DNA of 64,000 nt from an uncultured Actinomycetes bacterium (GTDB lineage Bacteria > Actinomycetota > Acidimicrobiia > IMCC26256 > PALSA-610). The first letter of the stretch is position 1. Every line of letters begins with the position of its first letter. The notes below the pieces were generated by a model that did not search any database, was not told the origin of the DNA, and saw nothing but the letters and a program-made list of their open reading frames with translations. The stretch spans positions 151,144 to 215,143 of the forward strand of contig CAWIMB010000002.1 of assembly GCA_963837155.1 (NCBI GenBank), read 5' to 3'. Shown piece after piece: positions 11,671 to 50,988 of this stretch. The translations under genes were made by a program, and so were the position numbers.

Positions 11671-12654
11671 ATGATTCCTGCGCAGTATGCCGAGTTCGAG
11701 CAAGTTGTCAGCGTCGGATGCGTGAACTTCGCGCGGGGCGCTTCGAAGGAGCTCACGCTCGCGAAGGTCGACGCGAACATTCGTGAGGCCGCAGCCCAGG
11801 GCATCGACATCGTCGTCTTCCCCGAAGGCGCGCTGACCGGTCCGGTCGACTGTTCGTGCCGTTTCGACGGCGGCGCGTGCTCGAGCCATCGCGAGCTCGC
11901 CGAGACCGTGCCCGGGCCCGCGAGCGAACACGTGGCGGCTTTGGCGCGCGAGCTCGATGTGTACGTGGTCTTCGGGCTCGCGGAGCGCGATGCCGACGAC
12001 GCGAGCGTGCTCTACAACGCGTCGGCGGTCGTCGGGCCCGAAGGCATCCTCGGCACGTACCGCAAGGTGCACCTCGGCACGCTGCCGTGGGTGACCGAAG
12101 GCATCACGTACCGGCCGGGGTCGTCGCTGCCGGTGTTCCCGACGCGTTTCGGCCCGATCGGCGTCCTGATCTGTTACGACTTCTGGTTCAACCCCGAGCT
12201 GAGCCGCATTCTCGCGTTGAAAGGCGCGCGGCTCCTCCTGAACACGTGCGGCACGTTCAAGGGCCCGGGCAAGCGCGACTACATGGTGCAGACCACGGCC
12301 GTGCGTGCTCAGGAGAACCTTGTGTACGCGGCGAGCGCCAACCTTGTCGGTGGCCGCGAGCGCGCGGACTACTCGGCCGAGCACCTCGATGAGCAGCGAG
12401 CCGACGACTACTTGGGTCACAGCGTGATCGCAGGCCCCGCGTTCCCGCGCTTCAGTCAGATCCTCGTCGAGGCGGGAGACACCGAGGAGTTGGTGAGCGC
12501 GACGCTGAGCTTCGAGAAGCTGCACCGATGGGAGCCGATCTTCCCGATGCGCGAGTGGCACGCCGGCCGTCAGCTCGCGGCGTCCAAGCTGATCGCCGAC
12601 GAGTTCACCGCCCTGGCCTCGCAGCACGCAACGGCCACGCGGGGGCGTGTTTGA
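11671..12654 (+). CDS. carbon-nitrogen hydrolase (nitrilase superfamily)
   Basis: ATG at 11671 inside ORF 11536..12654: IVVFPEGALTG...YRKVHL...LICYDFWFNPE (E-K-C triad context). Confidence 0.85.
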   Translation: MIPAQYAEFEQVVSVGCVNFARGASKELTLAKVDANIREAAAQGIDIVVFPEGALTGPVDCSCRFDGGACSSHRELAETVPGPASEHVAALARELDVYVVFGLAERDADDASVLYNASAVVGPEGILGTYRKVHLGTLPWVTEGITYRPGSSLPVFPTRFGPIGVLICYDFWFNPELSRILALKGARLLLNTCGTFKGPGKRDYMVQTTAVRAQENLVYAASANLVGGRERADYSAEHLDEQRADDYLGHSVIAGPAFPRFSQILVEAGDTEELVSATLSFEKLHRWEPIFPMREWHAGRQLAASKLIADEFTALASQHATATRGRV

Positions 12655-27409: not shown

Positions 27410-29025
<1,616 letters not shown>

Positions 29026-29042
<17 letters not shown>

Positions 29043-29127
29043 AGCCAGGGATGGCGCAACGAGGGAGCCATGGAGATCGTGCGGACGCAGTGAAGCCAGG
29101 GATGGCGCAACGAGGGAGCCATGGAGG
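29026..29127 (+). repeat. 2 x 51-nt tandem repeat (family B, MIRU-like) carrying the ligase stop codon
   Basis: TCGTGCGGACGCAGTGAAGCCAGGGATGGCGCAACGAGGGAGCCATGGAG(A/G) occurs twice (50/51 identical). A third, diverged copy is at 62255..62299. Confidence 0.85.
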
Positions 29128-38422: not shown

Positions 38423-38431
38423 GACGACAGT

Positions 38432-38449
38432 CTACCGACTGGTCGGTAG
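38432..38449. promoter_or_regulatory. candidate TetR operator CTACCGAC-TG-GTCGGTAG
   Basis: 8+8 bp inverted repeat 10 nt upstream of the TetR start, in the divergent spacer to the desaturase gene. Confidence 0.55.
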
Positions 38450-38462
38450 TACCATTGGTCCC

Positions 38463-40185: not shown

Positions 40186-40198
40186 GCTTTCCACTCCT

Positions 40199-40266
40199 GG
40201 CGGCTGCGCCGCCGGGCCGTTGGGCCACGCTCGCTGCTCGGCAGGGTACCTGCCTCGCTTCGCTCG
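40199..40266 (-). repeat. intergenic repeat, family C copy 2 (hairpin GGCAGG-GTA-CCTGCC)
   Basis: Fills the spacer between the thioesterase stop (40268) and the LLM start (40185). Similar to 35537..35605, with a compensatory G:C to A:T change in the stem. Confidence 0.65.
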
Positions 40267-40267
40267 T

Positions 40268-41101
40268 TCATCGCCGGATGTCGCCTTCGAGCTCGGTGAG
40301 CGGTGCGTCGCGGTGGGCCCGGACGATCGTCGACTGGCTGGCCGTGCCGAGCAGTGTGCCGTCGTCGGCCCAGAGATGCACGAGCCCGTGGCCGAAGCCG
40401 TCGGCGACCGCGTGCACCCGTACGTCGGCAAGCACCCAATCGGTGGCGACGCGATGGGCGACGCGCAGGGTGTTGTCGAGGCTGTTGCCGCCGGCGCGCC
40501 GGCCCAGGGCCTGGCCGATCCCGAACGGCACGAAGTCACCGATGATCGCGAGCGCGGCGGCCGACATGTCGAGGACCTCGGGCATGCGGACCCACAGCGA
40601 CGCGTTCCCCGAGCCTTCCGGGCCGGGGAACTCCCAGAACGGCCGCGCGTCGGCGAGGCGCGCGTCGAGGCGTGCGCTGATCGTCCCCTCGTGGTGGTTC
40701 ATCATCGGACGCGGCGCGCACGTCTCGGGCGCGGGCACGTCGGGACGCGCGGCCCACTGACCTTCGAGCGGCAAGGGGCGTTGCCCGAGTGCGCCGACCA
40801 CGGTGAGGATCTCGGTGTCGCCGACGTGCGCGATCACGCGCGTCTGGCTCATCTGATGGCCTCTCACGACTTCGTACACGTCGAGCTCGACGATCGACGG
40901 CGGGCGCGCGTACGAAAGGAATTCCGCGGTCGCCCAGATGCACGGCCGCCCGGTGACTTGCTCCATCACCTCGATGCACGCGCCGAGCCCGCATCCGCCG
41001 AACAGCGCGCCCGTGCCCGAGGTGAGACCACGGACGACTTCCATCGTCCACTTCGTGCGATCAGCGGTCGGTTCGAGACCGAAGAACGTCCGGGCATCCA
41101 T
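40268..41101 (-). CDS. acyl-CoA thioesterase (TesB-like double hotdog)
   Basis: ORF 40268..41101. Length and pattern (LFGGCGLGACI..., ...LWADDGTLLGTASQS) fit the acyl-CoA thioesterase II family. Confidence 0.75.
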   Translation of the reverse strand: MDARTFFGLEPTADRTKWTMEVVRGLTSGTGALFGGCGLGACIEVMEQVTGRPCIWATAEFLSYARPPSIVELDVYEVVRGHQMSQTRVIAHVGDTEILTVVGALGQRPLPLEGQWAARPDVPAPETCAPRPMMNHHEGTISARLDARLADARPFWEFPGPEGSGNASLWVRMPEVLDMSAAALAIIGDFVPFGIGQALGRRAGGNSLDNTLRVAHRVATDWVLADVRVHAVADGFGHGLVHLWADDGTLLGTASQSTIVRAHRDAPLTELEGDIRR

Positions 41102-41116
41102 CGGCCGTGGAGGCTA

Positions 41117-41445
41117 TGCCACCAACAGTTGGCAGCGTTTCCCGCGCATAGCGCGGTTTTTGCCACCAACTGTTGGCAGCGTTTCCCGCGCATAGCGCGG
41201 TTTTTGCCACCAACTGTTGGCAGCGTTTCCCGCGCATAGCGCGGTTTTTGCCACCAACTGTTGGCAGCGTTTCCCGCGCATAGCGCGGTTTTTGCCACCA
41301 ACTGTTGGCAGCGTTTCCCGCGCATAGCGCGGTTTTTGCCACCAACTGTTGGCAGCGTTTCCCGCGCATAGCGCGGTTTTTGCCACCAACTGTTGGCAGC
41401 GTTTCCCGCGCATAGCGCGGTTTTTGCTGCCAACTGTTGTGGGTT
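41117..41445. repeat. 44-nt tandem repeat: 7 perfect copies plus a degenerate 8th
   Basis: Unit TGCCACCAACTGTTGGCAGCGTTTCCCGCGCATAGCGCGGTTTT starts at 41117, 41161, 41205, 41249, 41293, 41337 and 41381. Copy 1 differs at one base. A partial copy starts at 41425. Confidence 0.95.
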
Positions 41446-42993
41446 TTAGCCGCGCGCGGCGTTGCGTTCGACGAGGCCGGCGTGGCCGGTGAGCTTCATG
41501 CCGGTGAGCGTGCGCTCGGAATGACGCATGCGCCAGGCGAGCATGCGCTGCGCGTACTCCAAGACCTTCGGCGCGTACGCGGGGTCGCCGGCTCGGTTGA
41601 CGAGTTGGGCGGGATCCTCGTCGATGTCGAAGTAGATCGCGGGGAACGCGTGATGGCCCGCGAACTGCACGTACTTGCCGTGCTCGTCGCGCAGCACAGC
41701 CAACGAGCACTCCTCGAGCGACACACCGAACGCCTCTTCGAGATACGTGCTCGCGGGATCGCGCAGGTCGAGCTCGAAGTGCACCTCGTTGCGCCACCCG
41801 TCGACGTTCTCGCCGCGCAACCACGGCGCGAGCGTGCGGCCGTCGCACTGCAACGGCACGTCGGCGTCGAGCAGTGAACAGATCGTCGGCAGCACGTCGA
41901 CGTGCTCGGTCATGACGTCGACCACCCGTCCCGCAGCCGGCACGCCCGGCCCCCGGAGGATCAACGGCACGTGGAACGCGGTGTCGAACCAACCGATCTT
42001 CTGCAGCAGCCAGTGGTCGCCGAGCAGCTCCCCATGGTCGGACGTGAAGATCACGATTGTGTTCTCTGCCTGCCCGCTCTCGTCGAGCCAACCGAACAAG
42101 CGGCCGAGCTGGTCGTCGACCTCGGTGATCATCCCGTAGTACGTCGCTTGGAACTCGCGCTGCTCCTGCTCGCCGGCGGGTGACGAGATCAGCGGGTGCA
42201 CGAGCATGACGCCGAGCAGCGGATGCTGCGCACCCTCTTCCGCCATCGTCGGTGCGCGCACCGGCGCCGGCACCGACGCCGGGTCGTACATCGTGTCGTA
42301 GGGCGCCGGTGCGAGGTACGGCGGATGCGGGCGCAGGTACGAGAGGTGCGCGAACCACGGGCGGCCCGTGGCCGTCCCGTCCTCGACGAAGTCGAGCACC
42401 CGGTCGGTGAGGTACGCCGTTTGGGAATGCTCGGCCCCGTAGTTCGTGCGAGATGTGGTGCCGGGCGCGGGCTCGTTCACGAACGATCGCCACTCGTCGG
42501 GCACCCCAATGCCGGTCTTGCGCATCCACGCGAGCCAGTCGTCGGGCGCGCCCTCGGCGAGGTGGCAGGCGGGGTCGAAGCCGGGGAGCACCCCCTCGTA
42601 CGAGAAGAGGCGGGGGTCGTCGGCGGCCACAGTGCGGGGGTCGACGCCGGAGTCGGTGTAGCCGAACAGCGCGGGCTCGTACCCGAGGCGGCGCGCCACC
42701 AACGCGACGTTGTCGTGGCGGGCGTCGAGCGGGGTGCCGTTGGTGGTCGCCCGGTGGTTCATCATGTACATGCCGGTGTAGATCGACGCCCGGCTTGGCG
42801 CGCACGGCACCGCATTGGCGAAGTGGCGGCGGAACGACACCCCGCCGGCGGCGAGGCGGTCGAGGTTCGGCGTCCGGACGACCGGGTGCCCGGCCCCGCT
42901 CAGGCAGTCGCTCCGGAACTGGTCCGCGGTGATGAACAGGACGTTGGGCCGCACGCTCACAGCTTCCCCAAAGCTGACCGAGGGAATCGGCAA
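41446..42993 (-). CDS. sulfatase (Cys-type, alkaline-phosphatase superfamily)
   Basis: ORF 41446..42993: LFITADQFR...CAPSRASIYTG (C-x-P-x-R formylglycine motif). Confidence 0.88.
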   Translation of the reverse strand: MPIPSVSFGEAVSVRPNVLFITADQFRSDCLSGAGHPVVRTPNLDRLAAGGVSFRRHFANAVPCAPSRASIYTGMYMMNHRATTNGTPLDARHDNVALVARRLGYEPALFGYTDSGVDPRTVAADDPRLFSYEGVLPGFDPACHLAEGAPDDWLAWMRKTGIGVPDEWRSFVNEPAPGTTSRTNYGAEHSQTAYLTDRVLDFVEDGTATGRPWFAHLSYLRPHPPYLAPAPYDTMYDPASVPAPVRAPTMAEEGAQHPLLGVMLVHPLISSPAGEQEQREFQATYYGMITEVDDQLGRLFGWLDESGQAENTIVIFTSDHGELLGDHWLLQKIGWFDTAFHVPLILRGPGVPAAGRVVDVMTEHVDVLPTICSLLDADVPLQCDGRTLAPWLRGENVDGWRNEVHFELDLRDPASTYLEEAFGVSLEECSLAVLRDEHGKYVQFAGHHAFPAIYFDIDEDPAQLVNRAGDPAYAPKVLEYAQRMLAWRMRHSERTLTGMKLTGHAGLVERNAARG

Positions 42994-43019
42994 TGCCCCC
43001 CGGTCGTTATACGGGCACT

Positions 43020-45327
43020 ATGCCAGACACCCAGACCCAACTTCTTCCCCTGTTGCCGCTTACGCAGGGGGTCGTGCTCCCGCAGATGGTCGTGACCATC
43101 GCGCTCGAGACCGACGAGGCCAAGCGGGCGGGTGCCGCCGCCGAACAGGCCGGCAACCGCATCGTGCTCGTTCCCAGGGTCGAGGGCCGCTTCGCGCGCG
43201 TCGGCACGATCGCAACCGTCGAGAGCTCGGGCGAGCTCCCCAACGGCACGTTGGCGCTGGTCATCCGCGGGACCGGCCGGGCCCGCATCGGCACCGGCGA
43301 GTCGGGCGCGCACGGCGCGCTGCACGTGCGGACCGAGGAGATCGAAGAGCCGGCGCCGACGCCTCGGGCGAAGGAGCTCGCGCGGGAATACCGGGCAGTC
43401 ATCGAGACCATCCTCGAGCACCGCGGCGCGCGGCGGATCGCCGACGTGCTCGCGGGCGTCGACGACCCGGGCCAGCTCGCGGACACTGCCGCGTACTCGC
43501 CCGACCTCACAATCGAACAGCGGGTCGAGCTGCTCGAGACCATCGACGTCGAGCAGCGATTGACGCTCGCGCTCGGATGGGCCCGCGAGGTGCTCGCGGA
43601 CCTCGAGCTGAAGGAGAAGATCCGCACCGAGGTCAGTGACGACCTCGACAAGCAGCAGCGCGAGCTGCTGTTACGCCGGCAAATGGACGCCATCCGCAAG
43701 GAGCTCGGCGACTCCGAGGAAGACGCCGTGGCCGAGTACCGCACGAAGGTGGCTGAGAAGCAGCTGCCGGACGCGGTGCGTGTCGCGGTCGACAAGGAGC
43801 TCGATCGGTTCGAGCGCATGGGTCCGCAGAATCCCGAGCAGGCGTGGGTCCGCAACTGGCTCGACGCCGTGCTCGACCTGCCATGGGGCGAGTTCGCCGA
43901 GGAGCACACCGACCTCGGCGAGGCGCGCGGCGTGCTGGACGCGGACCACGAAGGCCTTGCCGACGTGAAGGACCGCATCCTCGAGTTCCTCGCGGTGCGC
44001 GTGCTGCGCAAGGAGCGTGGCCTGGGCACCGTCAGCGGACGCGGCAGCGGCGCGATCCTCGGGCTCGTCGGTCCCCCCGGCGTCGGCAAGACGTCACTCG
44101 GTGAGTCGGTCGCGCGTGCGCTCGGCCGTCCGTTTGTGCGCGTCGCCGTTGGCGGTGTGCGCGACGAGGCCGAGATCCGTGGGCACCGGCGTACCTACGT
44201 CGGCGCGCGCCCGGGACGCATCGTGCGTGCCCTGACCGAAGCCAAGGCGATGAACCCCGTCGTGCTGATCGACGAGGTCGACAAGTTGCAGGCCGGCGGT
44301 TGGTCGGGCGATCCCGCAAGCGCGTTGCTCGAGGTGCTCGACCCGGCGCAGAACCACACATTCCGCGACCACTACCTGGAGCTCGACCTCGATCTGTCCG
44401 ACGTGTTGTTCCTCACGACGGCGAACATGCTGGAGACGATCCCGGCGCCCTTGTTGGACCGGATGGAGCTCGTGCAGCTCGACGGTTACACCGAGGACGA
44501 GAAGGTGTCGATCGCCAAGCACCATCTGTTCCCGCGCCAGCGCGAGAAGGCGGGGCTGCGCGAGGACGAGTTGGAGGTCACCGACGCCGCGTTCCACACG
44601 CTCGTGTCCGGATGGACACGAGAGGCGGGCGTGCGCGGTCTCGAGCGCCAGCTCGGCAAGATCACGCGCAAGGCCGTCCGCAAGATTGCCGCGGGTGAAA
44701 TGACCACGGTCGTCGTCGACGAGCCCGACCTCAAGGAGTACGTCGGTCGGGCGCGCTTCCGTCCCGAGGACGCGACGCGTGCGCCGATCCCCGGCCTGGC
44801 GACCGGTCTTGCGGTCACCGGTGCCGGTGGTGACGTGCTCACCATCGAGGTCACCGCGATGGAGGGCGAGCCGGCGATGCAGGTCACGGGTCAGCTCGGC
44901 GACGTCATGTCGGAGTCGGCGCAGATCGCGCTGTCGTTCGTGCGTGCGAACGCGAACGAGCTCGGTGTGTTGCCGGGTGCCTTCGAACACCGGCGGTTCC
45001 ACTTGCACGTGCCCTCGGGTGCGATCCCCAAGGACGGACCGTCGGCCGGCATCACGATGACCACCGCGCTCGCGTCGCTCGTGACCGGCCGCCCGGTGAA
45101 GCCGGGCGTCGGCATGACCGGCGAGGTGACGTTGCAGGGTCGCGTGTTGCCGATCGGTGGGCTCAAGCAGAAGCTGCTTGCTGCACACCGGGCCGGGCTC
45201 ACCGACGTGGTGATCCCGATCGACAACGAGGCGGATCTCGACGACGTGCCCGAGCAGGTGCGCGAGGTCCTGCACGTCCACCCGGTGCGGGACGTGCGCG
45301 AGGTACTCGCCGATCGCGCTCACGTAA
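43020..45327 (+). CDS. lon: ATP-dependent Lon protease. As assembled it reads in frame into the next gene; the natural stop is probably TAA at 45325.
   Basis: ATG at 43020 inside ORF 42993..46223. It has the LON N-domain, Walker A GPPGVGKTS and the protease motif PKDGPSAGIT. A +1 frame at 45313 reads IALT-stop, which looks like a typical Lon C-terminus. Confidence 0.85.
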
Positions 45328-45333
45328 GTCCCA

Positions 45334-45362
45334 AGGGCGGGAGCCACCTAGGCTCCCGCCCT
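45334..45362 (+). terminator. 12-bp stem hairpin between Lon and the CPBP gene
   Basis: AGGGCGGGAGCC-ACCTA-GGCTCCCGCCCT immediately precedes the ATG at 45363. Confidence 0.55.
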
Positions 45363-46223
45363 ATGCGGACGCTCACCGCCCCGGAGTTGGCGGACGCGCC
45401 CGTCGAAGCTTGGCACCGGCGCGTGTGGCGGACATACGTCACCGACGTTCGCGCGGAAGCCAACGCGCGGGCTGTCGTCTCGCGTTCGACCGATCGCAAG
45501 ATGGTGCTCGTCTTCGTCGTCGCGGCCGTGGCGCTGACGTGCAACAACTTCCTCTCGGACGGCTCGCATCCCCAGTGGCTGGAGTCGTTGCTGCGCGCGG
45601 TCGGGCTCGACGGCGTCGCCCAGCGCTTGGACGACGCGATGCTCGTCTCCGCCCATCGCGACTTCAATCAACTCGCGTTCTGGGCCGTCGTTGTCATCGC
45701 GAGCTATGTCGTCCCGGCCGTGTTGTGCATCCACTTCCTCTTCCACGAGCGCGTTCGCGATTACGGCCTTCGCATCCGCGGAATCGGCCACCACCTGCGC
45801 ACATACGCGGCGCTCTATGCGATCGCGGCACCGTTGATTGTCGCGTTCTCGTTCACAGCCGCGTTCCAGGAGAAGTACCCCTTCTACCATCCGCCCGCCG
45901 GTGGCTCGCTGTGGCCGTATCTCTATGCATGGTGGGCGCTGTACTGGCTCCAGTTCTGCGCGTTGGAGTTCTTCTTCCGCGGCTTCATGGTGCACGGTCT
46001 CGCGCCGCGCCTCGGTTGGGCCGCGATCTTCGCCATGGTCGTGCCGTACAACATGCTTCACTACGGCAAGCCGATGCCTGAGGCGCTTGCGGCGATCGTC
46101 GGCGGCATCGTGCTCGGCACGCTCAGCCTGAAGTTCCGCTCGATCTGGCCCGGCGCCGCGTTGCACATCACGATCGCGCTCACGATGGACATGTTCGCCC
46201 TCGGCCACGCCCGCTGGTGGTGA
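45363..46223 (+). CDS. CPBP-family intramembrane glutamic endopeptidase (CAAX protease-like)
   Basis: ATG at 45363 within ORF 42993..46223. Multi-TM, with the motifs CALEFFFRG and HYG...HITIA. Confidence 0.75.
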   Translation: MRTLTAPELADAPVEAWHRRVWRTYVTDVRAEANARAVVSRSTDRKMVLVFVVAAVALTCNNFLSDGSHPQWLESLLRAVGLDGVAQRLDDAMLVSAHRDFNQLAFWAVVVIASYVVPAVLCIHFLFHERVRDYGLRIRGIGHHLRTYAALYAIAAPLIVAFSFTAAFQEKYPFYHPPAGGSLWPYLYAWWALYWLQFCALEFFFRGFMVHGLAPRLGWAAIFAMVVPYNMLHYGKPMPEALAAIVGGIVLGTLSLKFRSIWPGAALHITIALTMDMFALGHARWW

Positions 46224-46236
46224 CGACGGCGTGGCG

Positions 46237-46279
46237 GGGGCGTGTGTGAGGTGCGATATTCGCACCTCACACACGCCCC
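46237..46279. terminator. 19-bp perfect hairpin, repeat family A copy 2
   Basis: GGGGCGTGTGTGAGGTGCG-ATATT-CGCACCTCACACACGCCCC between convergent genes. It differs from copy 1 by a compensated T:A to G:C pair and in the loop. Confidence 0.7.
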
Positions 46280-48185: not shown

Positions 48186-48559
48186 GTGCCATTCGTCCAA
48201 CGAAGGAACAGATCTTCGAGCTGATCAACGCGCCCGACGAAGGCCCGGTCGTGATGCTCAATCTGTTGAAGTTCAAGCCACGCGAGGGCGCCGGTGAATA
48301 CAACAAGTACGGCGATTCCGTCGTACGAATGGTCGAGGCGACGGGTGGCAAGGTGCTCTGGATGGGCAAGGTCGACCAGACGCTGATCGGCCCCGTCGAC
48401 GAGGACTGGGATGCGATCGCACTCGTGCAGTACCCGAGCCGCAAGGCGTTCATCGAGATGACGTCGACCAAGGACTACGACGCCGCACACGAGCACCGCG
48501 AAGCCGGGCTCGAACGCACACTCCTGCTCGCGTGCACGCAACGAGCCGGGACGCTGTAG
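48182..48559 (+). CDS. DUF1330 domain protein
   Basis: GTG at 48182 (GTGA overlap) inside ORF 48077..48559: PVVMLNLLKFKP...ALVQYPSRKAFIEM. Confidence 0.75.
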   Translation: MSAIRPTKEQIFELINAPDEGPVVMLNLLKFKPREGAGEYNKYGDSVVRMVEATGGKVLWMGKVDQTLIGPVDEDWDAIALVQYPSRKAFIEMTSTKDYDAAHEHREAGLERTLLLACTQRAGTL

Positions 48560-50160
48560 TGGGGCGCAAGATCCTCTTCATCACAACAGACCAGCAGCGC
48601 CACGACTCGCTGGGGTGCAACGGCGGCACGATCGCGCGCACACCGGTTGTCGACGGGCTCGCGGCAACCGGCATCAACTACAAGCGCGCGTACAACCAGA
48701 ACACCGTGTGCATGCCGGCCCGGTCGACGATGCTCACCGGCCAGTACGTGCGTACGCATGGCGTGGTCGCCAACGGCGTGCCCCTCCCGGCCGACGCGCC
48801 GAGCGTCGCCGCGTACCTCAAGGAGAAGGCCGGCTACCACACCGCGTTGCTCGGCAAGGCGCACTTCGAGCCCGGCTTCGACATGAAGCTCGAGTGGCCC
48901 GAGAACTTCATGTCCGAACGCGGGCTCACCGGCCCCTACCGAGGGTTCGAACATGCGGAGCTCGCGGTACACGTGCCGACCGTCGGCAAGCGCGCGCTGC
49001 AGCATTACGGGAGGTGGCTCGTCGACACCCACGGCATCGAGGCGGCCAAGGGCTTCTCGCCGTTGCTCGCCGCCGAGCCCGGCGGTGACACCAATGCACC
49101 CGAGACCCGCGTCAACCCGATTCCTCGCGACTGGTACCACACCGATTGGGTCGCCGATCGCACGATCGCGTACCTCGACTCGCTTCCGGACGACGCCGAC
49201 TGGTTCGTGTGGATGTCGTTCCCGGACCCGCATCACCCGTGGGATCCGCCCGCATCAGAACGACACCGTTGCGACTGGCGCGACCTTGATCTGCCGCCCG
49301 GGCATCCCGGCTCGAAAGAAAACATCGAGCGCGTCCTCGCCCAGAAGCCCGCGCACTGGCTCGCATTGTGGGAGGGCTCGTTCGTCAACGCCGAAGGCGG
49401 ACCTGGTTCGTACCGTCCGCAGAACGTGAGCGACGACTCGTTGCGCGAGATCAACGCGATGGTCCACATCATGAACGAGATGATCGACGACGCGTGCGGG
49501 CGCGTGATGCGTCGCATCGGTGAGCGCGGGTGGGACGCGGACACCGACGTCTTCTTCACGACCGATCACGGCGAGCTGCAAGGCGACTACGGCCTGATCT
49601 TCAAGGGCCCCTTCCACACCGATGCGCTGATGCGGTTGCCAATGGTGTGGCGGCCGGCGCCAACCGCGGGTGTCAGCACAGCAGAGGTCCGCGAACCGGT
49701 CGGACAGCTGGATCTTGCACCGACCTTCTGCGAGATCGCGGGCGTCAAGCAGCCGGAGTGGATGCAGGGCGCGCCGTTGCCTGTTGCCCCGGGCAGCGGT
49801 CGCGAACGTGTGCTGTGCGAATGGGACTCGCAGTTCCCCGGCTACGGCATGCACCTGCGAACCATCTATCGCGACGGCTGGCTCTGCACCGCGTATGAGC
49901 CTTCGACGATCGGCGAACCGAACGGTCTCGAGGAGTTCTTCGCCGCGACCGGGATGTTCGGCGGTGGCATCGGCCCGCGCAGCTCGGTCGCCTATGACGG
50001 CACCGAAGGCGAGCTCTACAACGTCGACGACGACCCGTATCAGTGGGAGAACCGCTGGGACGACGCTGCGTCAAAAGCGTTGAAAGAAGACCTGGTCGCG
50101 GATCTCTACGACAGTCTTCCCCGGGAACGCAACGTCCTGAAGGTGGAGCGCCCGGCCTAA
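48559..50160 (+). CDS. sulfatase (Cys-type)
   Basis: GTG at 48559 inside ORF 48532..50160: ILFITTDQQR...CMPARSTMLTG. Confidence 0.88.
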   Translation: MGRKILFITTDQQRHDSLGCNGGTIARTPVVDGLAATGINYKRAYNQNTVCMPARSTMLTGQYVRTHGVVANGVPLPADAPSVAAYLKEKAGYHTALLGKAHFEPGFDMKLEWPENFMSERGLTGPYRGFEHAELAVHVPTVGKRALQHYGRWLVDTHGIEAAKGFSPLLAAEPGGDTNAPETRVNPIPRDWYHTDWVADRTIAYLDSLPDDADWFVWMSFPDPHHPWDPPASERHRCDWRDLDLPPGHPGSKENIERVLAQKPAHWLALWEGSFVNAEGGPGSYRPQNVSDDSLREINAMVHIMNEMIDDACGRVMRRIGERGWDADTDVFFTTDHGELQGDYGLIFKGPFHTDALMRLPMVWRPAPTAGVSTAEVREPVGQLDLAPTFCEIAGVKQPEWMQGAPLPVAPGSGRERVLCEWDSQFPGYGMHLRTIYRDGWLCTAYEPSTIGEPNGLEEFFAATGMFGGGIGPRSSVAYDGTEGELYNVDDDPYQWENRWDDAASKALKEDLVADLYDSLPRERNVLKVERPA

Positions 50161-50172
50161 GTCCCTGTGTGG

Positions 50173-50988
50173 TCATCGGCGGCGGAGGTGCGCGGTCTGC
50201 GTCGCGATCGCGCACAGCTGGCCGCGTTCATCCCACAGACGTGCAGGTCCGGTCGCGTAGCCGTCGCCGATGTGCCACGCCTCGATCTCTTGCAACACCC
50301 ACGGCGTCGCGGGTGTGCGAACGAACCGGATCCCGATCTCCAGTGAGAGCGACATGAAATGGCCGTGCGCGTCGTGTGGCCCGAGCGCGCGGCCGACCGC
50401 GGGCCCGAGCACGTCACCGTGTACCGCGAGCGTCAGCCGGTCCGGTTCGCCTTCGAGGAGACGGACCCACGAGAGGAACTGACCCTTGCCGGGGTCGTCG
50501 AGCGGGCTGACCGGCCGCCATGCCGTCTGCTCGTGGAAGTTGATGCGGCCGAACGGGTTCGGGCGTTCGGGGTCGGGCGGCAACGGTGCGTCGGCCGGCA
50601 TCGGCACCTCGGGGAACCGCACCTCTTGATGAGCGAGATCGGTGTCGTGCGCCGTGCCGAACACCCCGTGCACGCGCAGGGCGGGCCCGTCGACGCCGTC
50701 CACGCGCAGATCGGCGGCGACCTGCGATGCGCGGCGGCCGTCGCGGAGTACGTCGACGTCGATCGTGATGGGACCGGGTGGAACTGGGGCGAGAAAGATC
50801 GCGTTCGCGGTGACGAGGTCGAGGTCGGAGCGGTCGAGTGCCTCCTGCATGGCGCGCAGCGCGGCGTACATCGAGACGCCGCCGAAGACGTACCCCACCT
50901 TCCAGGCGTCGGGAAGGTTGGCGTGAAAACGCCCGGGCCGGGCGGGATCGGGCGTCAGCGTCGTGTCCGCACGCAGGTCGTGGGGCAT
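50173..50988 (-). CDS. acyl-CoA thioesterase-like hotdog protein
   Basis: ORF 50173..50988. Double-hotdog layout similar to 40268..41101. Confidence 0.65.
   Translation of the reverse strand: MPHDLRADTTLTPDPARPGRFHANLPDAWKVGYVFGGVSMYAALRAMQEALDRSDLDLVTANAIFLAPVPPGPITIDVDVLRDGRRASQVAADLRVDGVDGPALRVHGVFGTAHDTDLAHQEVRFPEVPMPADAPLPPDPERPNPFGRINFHEQTAWRPVSPLDDPGKGQFLSWVRLLEGEPDRLTLAVHGDVLGPAVGRALGPHDAHGHFMSLSLEIGIRFVRTPATPWVLQEIEAWHIGDGYATGPARLWDERGQLCAIATQTAHLRRR

Follow-up and report, generated by a model that had tools for sequence, protein, structure and literature searches.

Tandemly repeated palindromes are known from the BOX elements of Streptococcus pneumoniae, organized as boxA-(boxB)n-boxC with a boxB module of about 45 nucleotides (nt), and from the sopC centromere of plasmid F, which consists of twelve 43-bp repeats with a short palindrome in each. 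BOX elements are transcribed with the neighbouring genes and can modulate their expression, and the repetitive extragenic palindromes (REPs) that make up bacterial interspersed mosaic elements (BIMEs) affect mRNA stability and bind proteins (PMC3184786). Among actinobacteria, the interspersed repetitive units of mycobacteria (MIRUs) are intergenic tandem units of 40–100 bp that lie between co-directional genes, vary in presence or absence and in copy number, and carry small open reading frames (ORFs) overlapping the flanking genes as well as tetranucleotide direct repeats (PMC3184786). Here the analysis concerned a 64,000-nt stretch of an uncultured Acidimicrobiia genome (assembly GCA_963837155.1, contig CAWIMB010000002.1, positions 151,144 to 215,143; hereafter “the window”), in which seven tandem copies of a 44-nt unit with two palindromes, termed H1 and H2, separate a sulfatase gene from an acyl-CoA thioesterase gene. 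These 44-nt repeats form a small family of intergenic, hairpin-forming repeats that had not been described before and that belongs to soil Acidimicrobiia. With a probability of roughly 0.6, the array in the window is a locally expanded minisatellite of a lineage-specific structured intergenic repeat of the REP/BIME, BOX or MIRU kind that would form a hairpin barrier between transcription units.

The array can be likened to each of these systems but shows the defining features of none, and it is in no named repeat family. As in REPs and BIMEs, the palindromes are short, GC-rich and extragenic, are located at gene 3′ ends and between convergent genes, occur singly or clustered with a two-hairpin module as the repeating element, and have a lineage-specific sequence; compared with the 20–40 nt of a REP-like palindrome, H1 measures 19–21 nt and H2 15–25 nt, placed 1–5 nt past stop codons. 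However, the REPs of a BIME are inverted copies, whereas the present arrays are built as direct tandem units from two palindromes of unrelated sequence in a fixed 22-nt phase, the window repeat has no GTAG-type 5′ motif, no gene for a REP-associated tyrosine transposase (RAYT) was seen, and the apparent copy number per genome is very low beside the tens to hundreds of a REP family, with one locus in the 64-kb window, one more inferred elsewhere in the genome and no Y1 transposase in the window. The resemblance to BOX elements consists of an intergenic tandem module of about 45 nt with variable copy number and a stable predicted fold; the arrays described here differ in following the pattern (H1-H2)n-H1 without distinct boxA- or boxC-like terminal modules, in showing no sequence similarity and in belonging to a high-GC host. 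MIRUs share with the array the actinobacterial host, the unit length, the intergenic position, the co-directional genes and the variable presence and copy number (PMC3184786), and among the options offered by an initial annotation, made from the sequence of the window alone, a variable number tandem repeat (VNTR) of MIRU type was the closest. The MIRU description nevertheless sets the 44-nt unit apart, as it has neither a coupled ORF nor tetranucleotide repeats: the window unit contains an ATG with no in-phase stop coupling it to the thioesterase start, and the units of a second subtype, represented by locus L002, contain two TGA codons each on the sense strand. A search of the literature for comparable 44-bp hairpin repeats, or for REPs in Acidimicrobiia, returned nothing specific, with no REPs described for this class.

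The 44-nt array in the window

An exact base-by-base comparison of the array revealed seven head-to-tail units of TGCCACCAACTGTTGGCAGCGTTTCCCGCGCATAGCGCGGTTTT with one substitution in total, copies 2–7 being identical and copy 1 having A for T at position 11, the centre of H1. In Tandem Repeats Finder the array was by far the strongest repeat of the window (period 44, 7.3 copies, 98% matches, score 625), and each half of the unit gave 7 matches in the window versus 0.00 expected in shuffles, confirming that the seven-copy array reported in the initial annotation is real. The identity of the copies points to recent expansion or homogenization, as had been proposed. The palindrome centres of the window units are 22 nt apart and, on the sense strand, the unit reads H1 (GCUGCCAAC-A-GUUGGUGGC), linker AAAAA, H2 (CCGCGC-UAU-GCGCGG) and linker GAAAC, while H1 on the + strand (GCCACCAAC-T-GTTGGCAGC) has two C·A mismatches. 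The spacer between the two genes (41102–41445) is 344 nt long, of which 36 nt are left after subtraction of the seven units (344 − 7 × 44). A degenerate eighth copy had been described as running into the sulfatase stop codon; such a copy is present, reduced to an H1 half-unit in which 13 of the first 15 bases match the unit (28/44 over the full unit phase), and it abuts the stop codon (TTA on the + strand, 41446–41448) without overlapping it.

The array folds strongly on both strands compared with shuffled sequence (z = −14.3 sense, −10.7 antisense), and two fold registers are possible because the arms of neighbouring H1 copies can pair with each other. On the + strand, H2 and the adjoining T5 gave seven terminator-like calls across the array. 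The array does not constitute a canonical intrinsic terminator of either flanking gene, given that T5 is antisense to both and that the hairpins on the sense strand are followed by GAAAC or AAAAA. An Rfam scan of the whole window returned nothing at the gathering threshold, the best sub-threshold match being tsr1 with 42 bits against a threshold of 235, so that the lack of a known RNA family stands. The array had also been called non-coding, which is correct in effect, although all three sense frames are open through it and a gene caller has placed an ORF, P0155, across a paralogous array (see below).

A regularly spaced palindromic repeat also recalls CRISPR arrays, and in one relative (L026) the segments between H1 copies differ from one another. 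However, the inter-H1 segments of the window are identical and hairpin-forming, those of the relatives are near-identical or hairpin-forming variants, and at 19–21 nt for H1 and 23–25 nt for the “spacer” both parts are short. Pfam scans of the approximately 35 window ORFs and the gene tables of the relatives contained no cas genes, only metabolic and regulatory genes, in agreement with the earlier rejection of a CRISPR locus.

Related arrays at the same junction

The comparison set comprised 80 metagenome loci with thioesterase orthologues and six loci retrieved by exact protein look-up; the window thioesterase is 100% identical to a protein on a contig of 3,995,207 bp, and its close relatives are labelled Acidimicrobiia bacterium in the source records. 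Arrays of 44-nt two-hairpin units were present at the sulfatase/thioesterase junction in six other Acidimicrobiia assemblies (Table 1), where they begin 1–5 nt after the upstream stop codon. Four of these (L002, L085, L003 and L083) share the unit of the second subtype, GTCCAATCTGATTGGAC-GCGGGA-CCCGCCGGTGGCGGG-CTGAGG. Short-read metagenome contigs stop inside or beside arrays at the start of L083, the start of L026 and the end of L085, and copy numbers in such assemblies are lower bounds.

In other relatives the junction is organized differently. Five loci (L004, L005, L009, L012 and L021) have no spacer but a TGATG stop/start overlap, the P0123 locus (92% amino acid (aa) identity) has a 38-nt spacer that approximates the window spacer minus all seven units, and L084, L007, L019 and L025 have unrelated hairpins. 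It follows that the array is dispensable. The idea that a hairpin is obligatory at this junction was rejected, since only 7 of the 12 spacers found there in relatives were significantly structured. A 15-nt repeat in three copies, GATGAAGTTCGGCCC, was noted at the junction in L073 (about 270–330).

Perfect repeats are prone to copy-number error in assembly. An assembly artefact behind the window array is nevertheless unlikely, because the edge copies are diverged and the internal ones homogeneous, the source contig is 3,995,207 bp long, and arrays occupy this junction in independently assembled relatives. Each + strand unit ends in a hairpin and T5, as would be expected of tandem small-RNA genes transcribed from that strand, but a 44-nt unit is too short for a promoter, no promoter-like site was found and Rfam gave no match; an origin in either an artefact or a small-RNA array is thus extremely improbable.

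Table 1. Features of the 44-nt array, its flanking genes and the corresponding arrays in relatives. Coordinates are window positions; strands are given where a feature was assigned to one.
Feature	Position	Strand	Description
Seven full units	41117..41424	.	H1 (imperfect 9-bp palindrome, single central base), linker, H2 (6-bp GC stem, 3-nt loop), A5/T5 linker
Degenerate sulfatase-proximal H1 half-unit	41425..41445	.	Sense strand AACCCACAACAGTTGGCAGCA; like the H1 form of the more distant relative L088
H1 example	41162..41180	-	Sense GCUGCCAAC-A-GUUGGUGGC, full pairing, 9 pairs including two G·U; period 44 nt
H2 example	41186..41205	+	CCGCGC-ATA-GCGCGG then T5, canonical intrinsic-terminator shape; period 44 nt
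TAGCCT, -10-like hexamer	41111..41116	-	9 nt upstream of thioesterase ATG, directly abuts last H1
Acyl-CoA thioesterase gene (4HBT_3C)	40268..41101	-	Downstream of array
Sulfatase gene	41446..42993	-	Stop codon immediately before array
Palindrome CTACCGAC-NN-GTCGGTAG	38431-38450; also L007, L064, L083, L084		Divergent TetR/fatty-acid desaturase promoter region; invariant across five loci
L002 array	Sulfatase/thioesterase junction		3.4 copies
L085 array	Sulfatase/thioesterase junction		3.2 copies
L003 array	Sulfatase/thioesterase junction		2.3 copies
L083 array	Sulfatase/thioesterase junction		Contig ends inside array
L026 array	Sulfatase/thioesterase junction		Contig starts inside array
L088 array	Sulfatase/thioesterase junction		~2 copies, window’s own unit type, H2 loop CAT vs TAT

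Conserved geometry and compensatory changes

In every member of the family the H1-H2-H1 palindrome centres are 22 nt apart and the period is 44. H1 keeps the pattern nnCCAA(n)C-W-G(n)TTGGnn, is palindromic through its centre and shows covariation at the outer stem positions, whereas H2 is a GC-rich stem-loop that keeps its stem only, with loops varying in sequence and length. The spacing between the CCAA and TTGG half-sites of H1 differs by subtype (3 nt vs 5 nt). For H1, 83.8% of cells pair compared with 65.7% in shuffles and 27–47% in slid controls, the covariation score is 0.453 vs 0.169 (0/500 shuffles reaching 0.453), and seven out of ten pairs have changes on both sides. For H2, 84% of cells pair vs 51% in shuffles (0/2000); stem positions 3–6 from the centre pair in 11/11 sequences, with CG, GC, AT, TA and GT pairs all used, and two H2 copies within L026 differ by three consecutive compensated pairs. 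Both stems are kept by compensatory change.

Units of the L002 type have no T-tract on the + strand and L005 has T-runs on the other strand, so that the stack of antisense terminators considered in the initial annotation does not extend to the family; in the absence also of a consistent asymmetry between sense and antisense folding energies across the family, the T-tract appears incidental. An asymmetry of G·U pairs was considered as a marker of the sense RNA strand and dropped, as it holds in the window, L002 and L064 and reverses in L003 and L026.

Copies at other sites

A palindrome scan and nhmmer located related units at a second junction in L005, L007 and L064, right after the stop codon of a luciferase-like monooxygenase (LLM) gene and between convergent genes. 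L007 and L005 contain two H1-H2 units each after the LLM stop, and L064 contains CCTCCCGAC-A-GTTGGGAGG followed 44 nt on by CTCCCAAC-T-GTTGGGAG, the second of which has TTTCG on both flanks, a possible 5-bp direct repeat. With the translated array as query, HMMER found P0155 as the sole true match among 1.84 billion representative proteins, the other five hits being unrelated low-complexity repeats. P0155 is a 98-aa ORF, 73% identical to the translated array, located on the same contig outside the window, and indicates that a second array of at least four units lies elsewhere in this genome; to the extent that back-translation can tell, this array shares its stems with the window unit but not its loops. 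The unit is not unique but one of a family with rigid 22/22-nt geometry, whose members occupy this junction in relatives, another junction and a further locus of the source genome.

Further searches added no copies. An H1 covariance model detected no new copies in the window, where it was run with filters off, or in 81 loci together with L087/L088 (about 311 kb), a translated L002-type array had no match in the protein collection, BLAST of the array against plasmids and phages gave no match, and pattern scans of viral contigs gave only one chance match, to a glycine-rich coding repeat of a phage. The search for kin of the 44-mer that the initial annotation had proposed was productive in relatives and at the P0155 locus; a scan of genome-collection representatives with the H1 21-mer gave only a chance match in a Herbaspirillum coding region, the source genome being evidently absent from that collection. 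The family is real but, within the sequences covered, low in copy number.

Evolution of the arrays

L002 and L085 differ by 0.20–0.23 at 4-fold sites and by 0.16 in the array, with substitutions mostly in loops and linkers (2/26 stem vs 6/18 non-stem positions in one unit). An identical change was often seen in several copies, which argues for concerted evolution within arrays. Between the window and L088 (84% aa identity) the 4-fold divergence is 0.40, but only 2 of 25 positions differ in H2 plus linkers, a conservation with p ~4e-4 under neutrality by our own binomial estimate. Against the L002 clade (92% identity) the window shows 0.28 at 4-fold sites, yet the units differ by eye at roughly half of their positions. 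The distribution of subtypes is therefore incongruent with gene identity, the window type being found in L088 and the other subtype in the closer L002 clade. This pattern may stem from an ancestral mixed array that became homogenized separately lineage by lineage, from conversion by a paralogous array, or from re-insertion. The window's diverged edge half-unit is similar to the L088 H1, which would be expected if homogenization does not reach array edges. Copy number itself is probably near neutral, since close relatives have 0, 2 or 3 units.

The incongruence is one of several observations that would suit a non-autonomous mobile element, like a MITE (a miniature transposable element with inverted repeats) or a REP/RAYT system, placed at gene 3′ ends by a hairpin-recognizing transposase, the array then being a by-product of insertion and slippage and any effect on transcripts incidental. 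The occurrence of the family at two distinct junctions and also at another locus of the source genome, the TTTCG on both sides of the second L064 H1 and the breaking of short-read contigs at arrays are also consistent with such an element. However, neither the approximately 35 window ORFs nor the genes annotated nearby in relatives include a transposase, RAYT or integrase, no terminal inverted repeats beyond the internal palindromes and no consistent target-site duplication were seen (TTTCG being one possible direct repeat, at one H1 in L064 only), the 64-kb window and 311 kb of related loci yielded no additional H1, and very few copies are detectable in public data. A mobile origin is accordingly regarded as unlikely.

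The identity of the copies, the relatives at about 92% identity with no array or 2–3 copies, and the closeness of array divergence (0.16) to 4-fold divergence between L002 and L085 could likewise be accommodated by a plain neutral VNTR, that is, a recent tandem duplication belonging to no family and under no structural constraint. The covariation and the paralogous loci weaken this explanation: compensatory changes preserve both stems and the same geometry recurs at other loci, while H2 and the linkers are far more conserved between the window and L088 than 4-fold sites. It is considered highly improbable for the array.

Promoter context and neighbouring genes

The thioesterase gene is followed on the same strand by an LLM gene, placing the array inside a co-directional gene string. 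In every orthologue that has a spacer, also where the upstream gene is divergent, a TAnnnT hexamer (TAGCCT) lies 8–11 nt ahead of the start codon of the thioesterase, as part of a TAGCCTsCGGCGCCG-ATG motif (window 41102–41116) that is conserved in front of this gene in more than 25 loci. Neither in the window nor in these orthologues does the thioesterase have a Shine-Dalgarno sequence. Most simply, and in keeping with what is generally known of actinobacterial promoters and leaderless mRNAs, TAGCCT would be the −10 box of a leaderless thioesterase transcript. Since arrays start 1–5 nt past the upstream stop codon and end with an H1 at the −10-like box (as in the window, L002, L003, L083 and L085), the array is more plausibly the 3′ region of the sulfatase than a leader of the thioesterase; the earlier description of an array upstream of the thioesterase start was right as to position, while the −10-like box that adjoins the array appears to belong to the thioesterase itself. 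Some orthologues couple the thioesterase to the sulfatase by the TGATG overlap, and the gene pair thus switches between translational coupling and separate transcription.

The abutment of the terminal H1 on the −10-like box in these five loci, together with the strictly kept 44-nt phasing, the palindromy of H1 through its centre and the retention of CCAA/TTGG and C-W-G across subtypes while H2 keeps structure only, might also indicate a protein-binding array, with H1 palindromes phased every 44 bp for a dimeric DNA-binding protein in an iteron- or sopC-like manner, or with the last H1 as an operator over the thioesterase −35 region. Several observations make this very doubtful. The half-site spacing of 3 nt in one subtype and 5 nt in the other would rotate the half-sites, the members at the LLM/desaturase junction lie between convergent gene ends where no promoter is expected, and close relatives have no array. 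The resemblance to sopC is one of tandem units of about 43–44 bp, each with a palindrome; the present array differs in being chromosomal and located between metabolic genes, in its variable palindrome sequence and half-site spacing and in its absence from close relatives, and no ParA/ParB or other partition or replication genes were found in its neighbourhood. H1 was also considered as the operator of the nearby TetR and rejected, as the probable operator of this regulator is a different palindrome, CTACCGAC-NN-GTCGGTAG, that is invariant across five loci (Table 1). The rigid 22/22-nt phasing and the central palindrome of H1 with its kept CCAA..CWG..TTGG have a broader possible meaning, namely that a dedicated protein uses the arrays as its specific substrates; this could be a dimeric DNA binder or topology factor that loads on phased sites, or else a recombinase specific for hairpins, which would seed arrays directly after stop codons. 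Such a new repeat-protein system in Acidimicrobiia is quite unlikely.

Elsewhere in the window, a second sulfatase gene (48532–50160, +) and a second acyl-CoA thioesterase gene (50173–50988, −; 4HBT_3 + 4HBT_3C) form a convergent pair 7 kb away that is paralogous to the genes flanking the array. Next to the array-flanking sulfatase gene, a Lon protease and an Rce1-like/CPBP membrane protease are encoded by a single 1076-aa ORF (42993–46223, +), whereas Lon and CPBP are separate genes in L085, L088 and L002, with a 35-nt hairpin spacer in L085; the single ORF is either a real fusion or the result of a stop codon lost, or an indel introduced, in the assembly. Just past this ORF lies a perfect 20-bp inverted repeat, GGGGCGTGTGTGAGGTGCGA...TCGCACCTCACACACGCCCC (46237–46279), partly kept in L085 (4954–5012), which is probably a U-less terminator-type hairpin.

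Other tandem repeats in the gene cluster

An 86-nt structured element (40186–40271, −) is inserted at the very point where thioesterase stop and LLM start overlap as ATGA, and it has ATGA at both ends. The mini-ORF that it encodes, MNERSEAGTLPSSERGPTARRRSRQEWKA, is 29 codons long and overlaps the thioesterase TGA with its ATG and the LLM ATG with its TGA; unlike the 44-nt unit, the element has the classic MIRU design. The element is repeated in tandem 3.1 times in L037 (627–889), and an 80-nt relative is repeated 4.0 times in L087 (2181–2499) between P450 and ABC-transporter genes; both periods are 2 mod 3, as an ATGA-coupled unit requires. A perfect 51-nt tandem duplication (29026–29126) after the gene of an AMP-binding enzyme (28077–29042) doubles the stop codon, a Shine-Dalgarno-like sequence and the start region. 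This 51-nt repeat shares a CGCAGTGAGG-type motif with the 86-nt element, and a related 51-nt repeat in 1.9 copies was found at a different junction, after the thioesterase, in L019 (3303–3401). L088 further contains a 57-nt array of 5.3 copies within or beside an SRAP gene call (11751–12049). Intercistronic tandem repeats appear to be a general trait of the lineage.

Discussion

The reading favoured here, a minisatellite of a lineage-specific structured repeat that would insulate adjacent transcription units, can be outlined as follows. Arrays sit directly after stop codons at gene 3′ ends, and their units would be gained, lost and homogenized by replication slippage or unequal recombination. 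In the window, 15 consecutive hairpins would fill the 3′ untranslated region of the sulfatase up to the −10-like box of the apparently leaderless thioesterase, where the stack may pause or terminate read-through and so separate the two transcription units, and may block 3′-to-5′ exonucleases on the sulfatase mRNA. On the opposite strand, the seven hairpins with T5 could act as terminators of antisense transcription, a property of the window unit type. The likeliest action would be akin to that of REP/BIME or BOX elements. REPs close to stop codons are also said to cause ribosome stalling.

A number of points weigh against this reading. Folding energies have no consistent asymmetry and so point to neither strand, nor to RNA rather than DNA, as the acting form, and the central palindromy and specific kept bases of H1 fit an RNA hairpin less well than a DNA-level mechanism or a dimeric DNA-binding protein. 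The hairpins of the sense strand have no U-tracts and hence are not canonical terminators, and a hairpin is not obligatory where only 7/12 junction spacers are significantly structured. The family was met at three kinds of site only. Some of its members came from a palindrome scan, which inflates the pairing statistics given above; this bias does not touch the arrays that were identified as tandem repeats at the orthologous junction. Moreover, stems could stay paired without selection through template-switch repair within palindromes.

The finding opens no new class of biology and adds a new case to a familiar type of genome feature. Although Acidimicrobiia abound in soil and water, their genetics is almost unstudied and no interspersed repeat family has been described for them. 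The present family has clear rules, with a 44-nt unit, two phased palindromes and a place immediately after stop codons. Its repeats can be used as VNTR markers for strain typing, and they explain contig breaks in short-read metagenome-assembled genomes, which they fragment in this lineage. The natural series of 0, 2, 3 and 7 units also offers material for studying insulation by hairpin stacks in high-GC bacteria that are mostly without canonical terminators.

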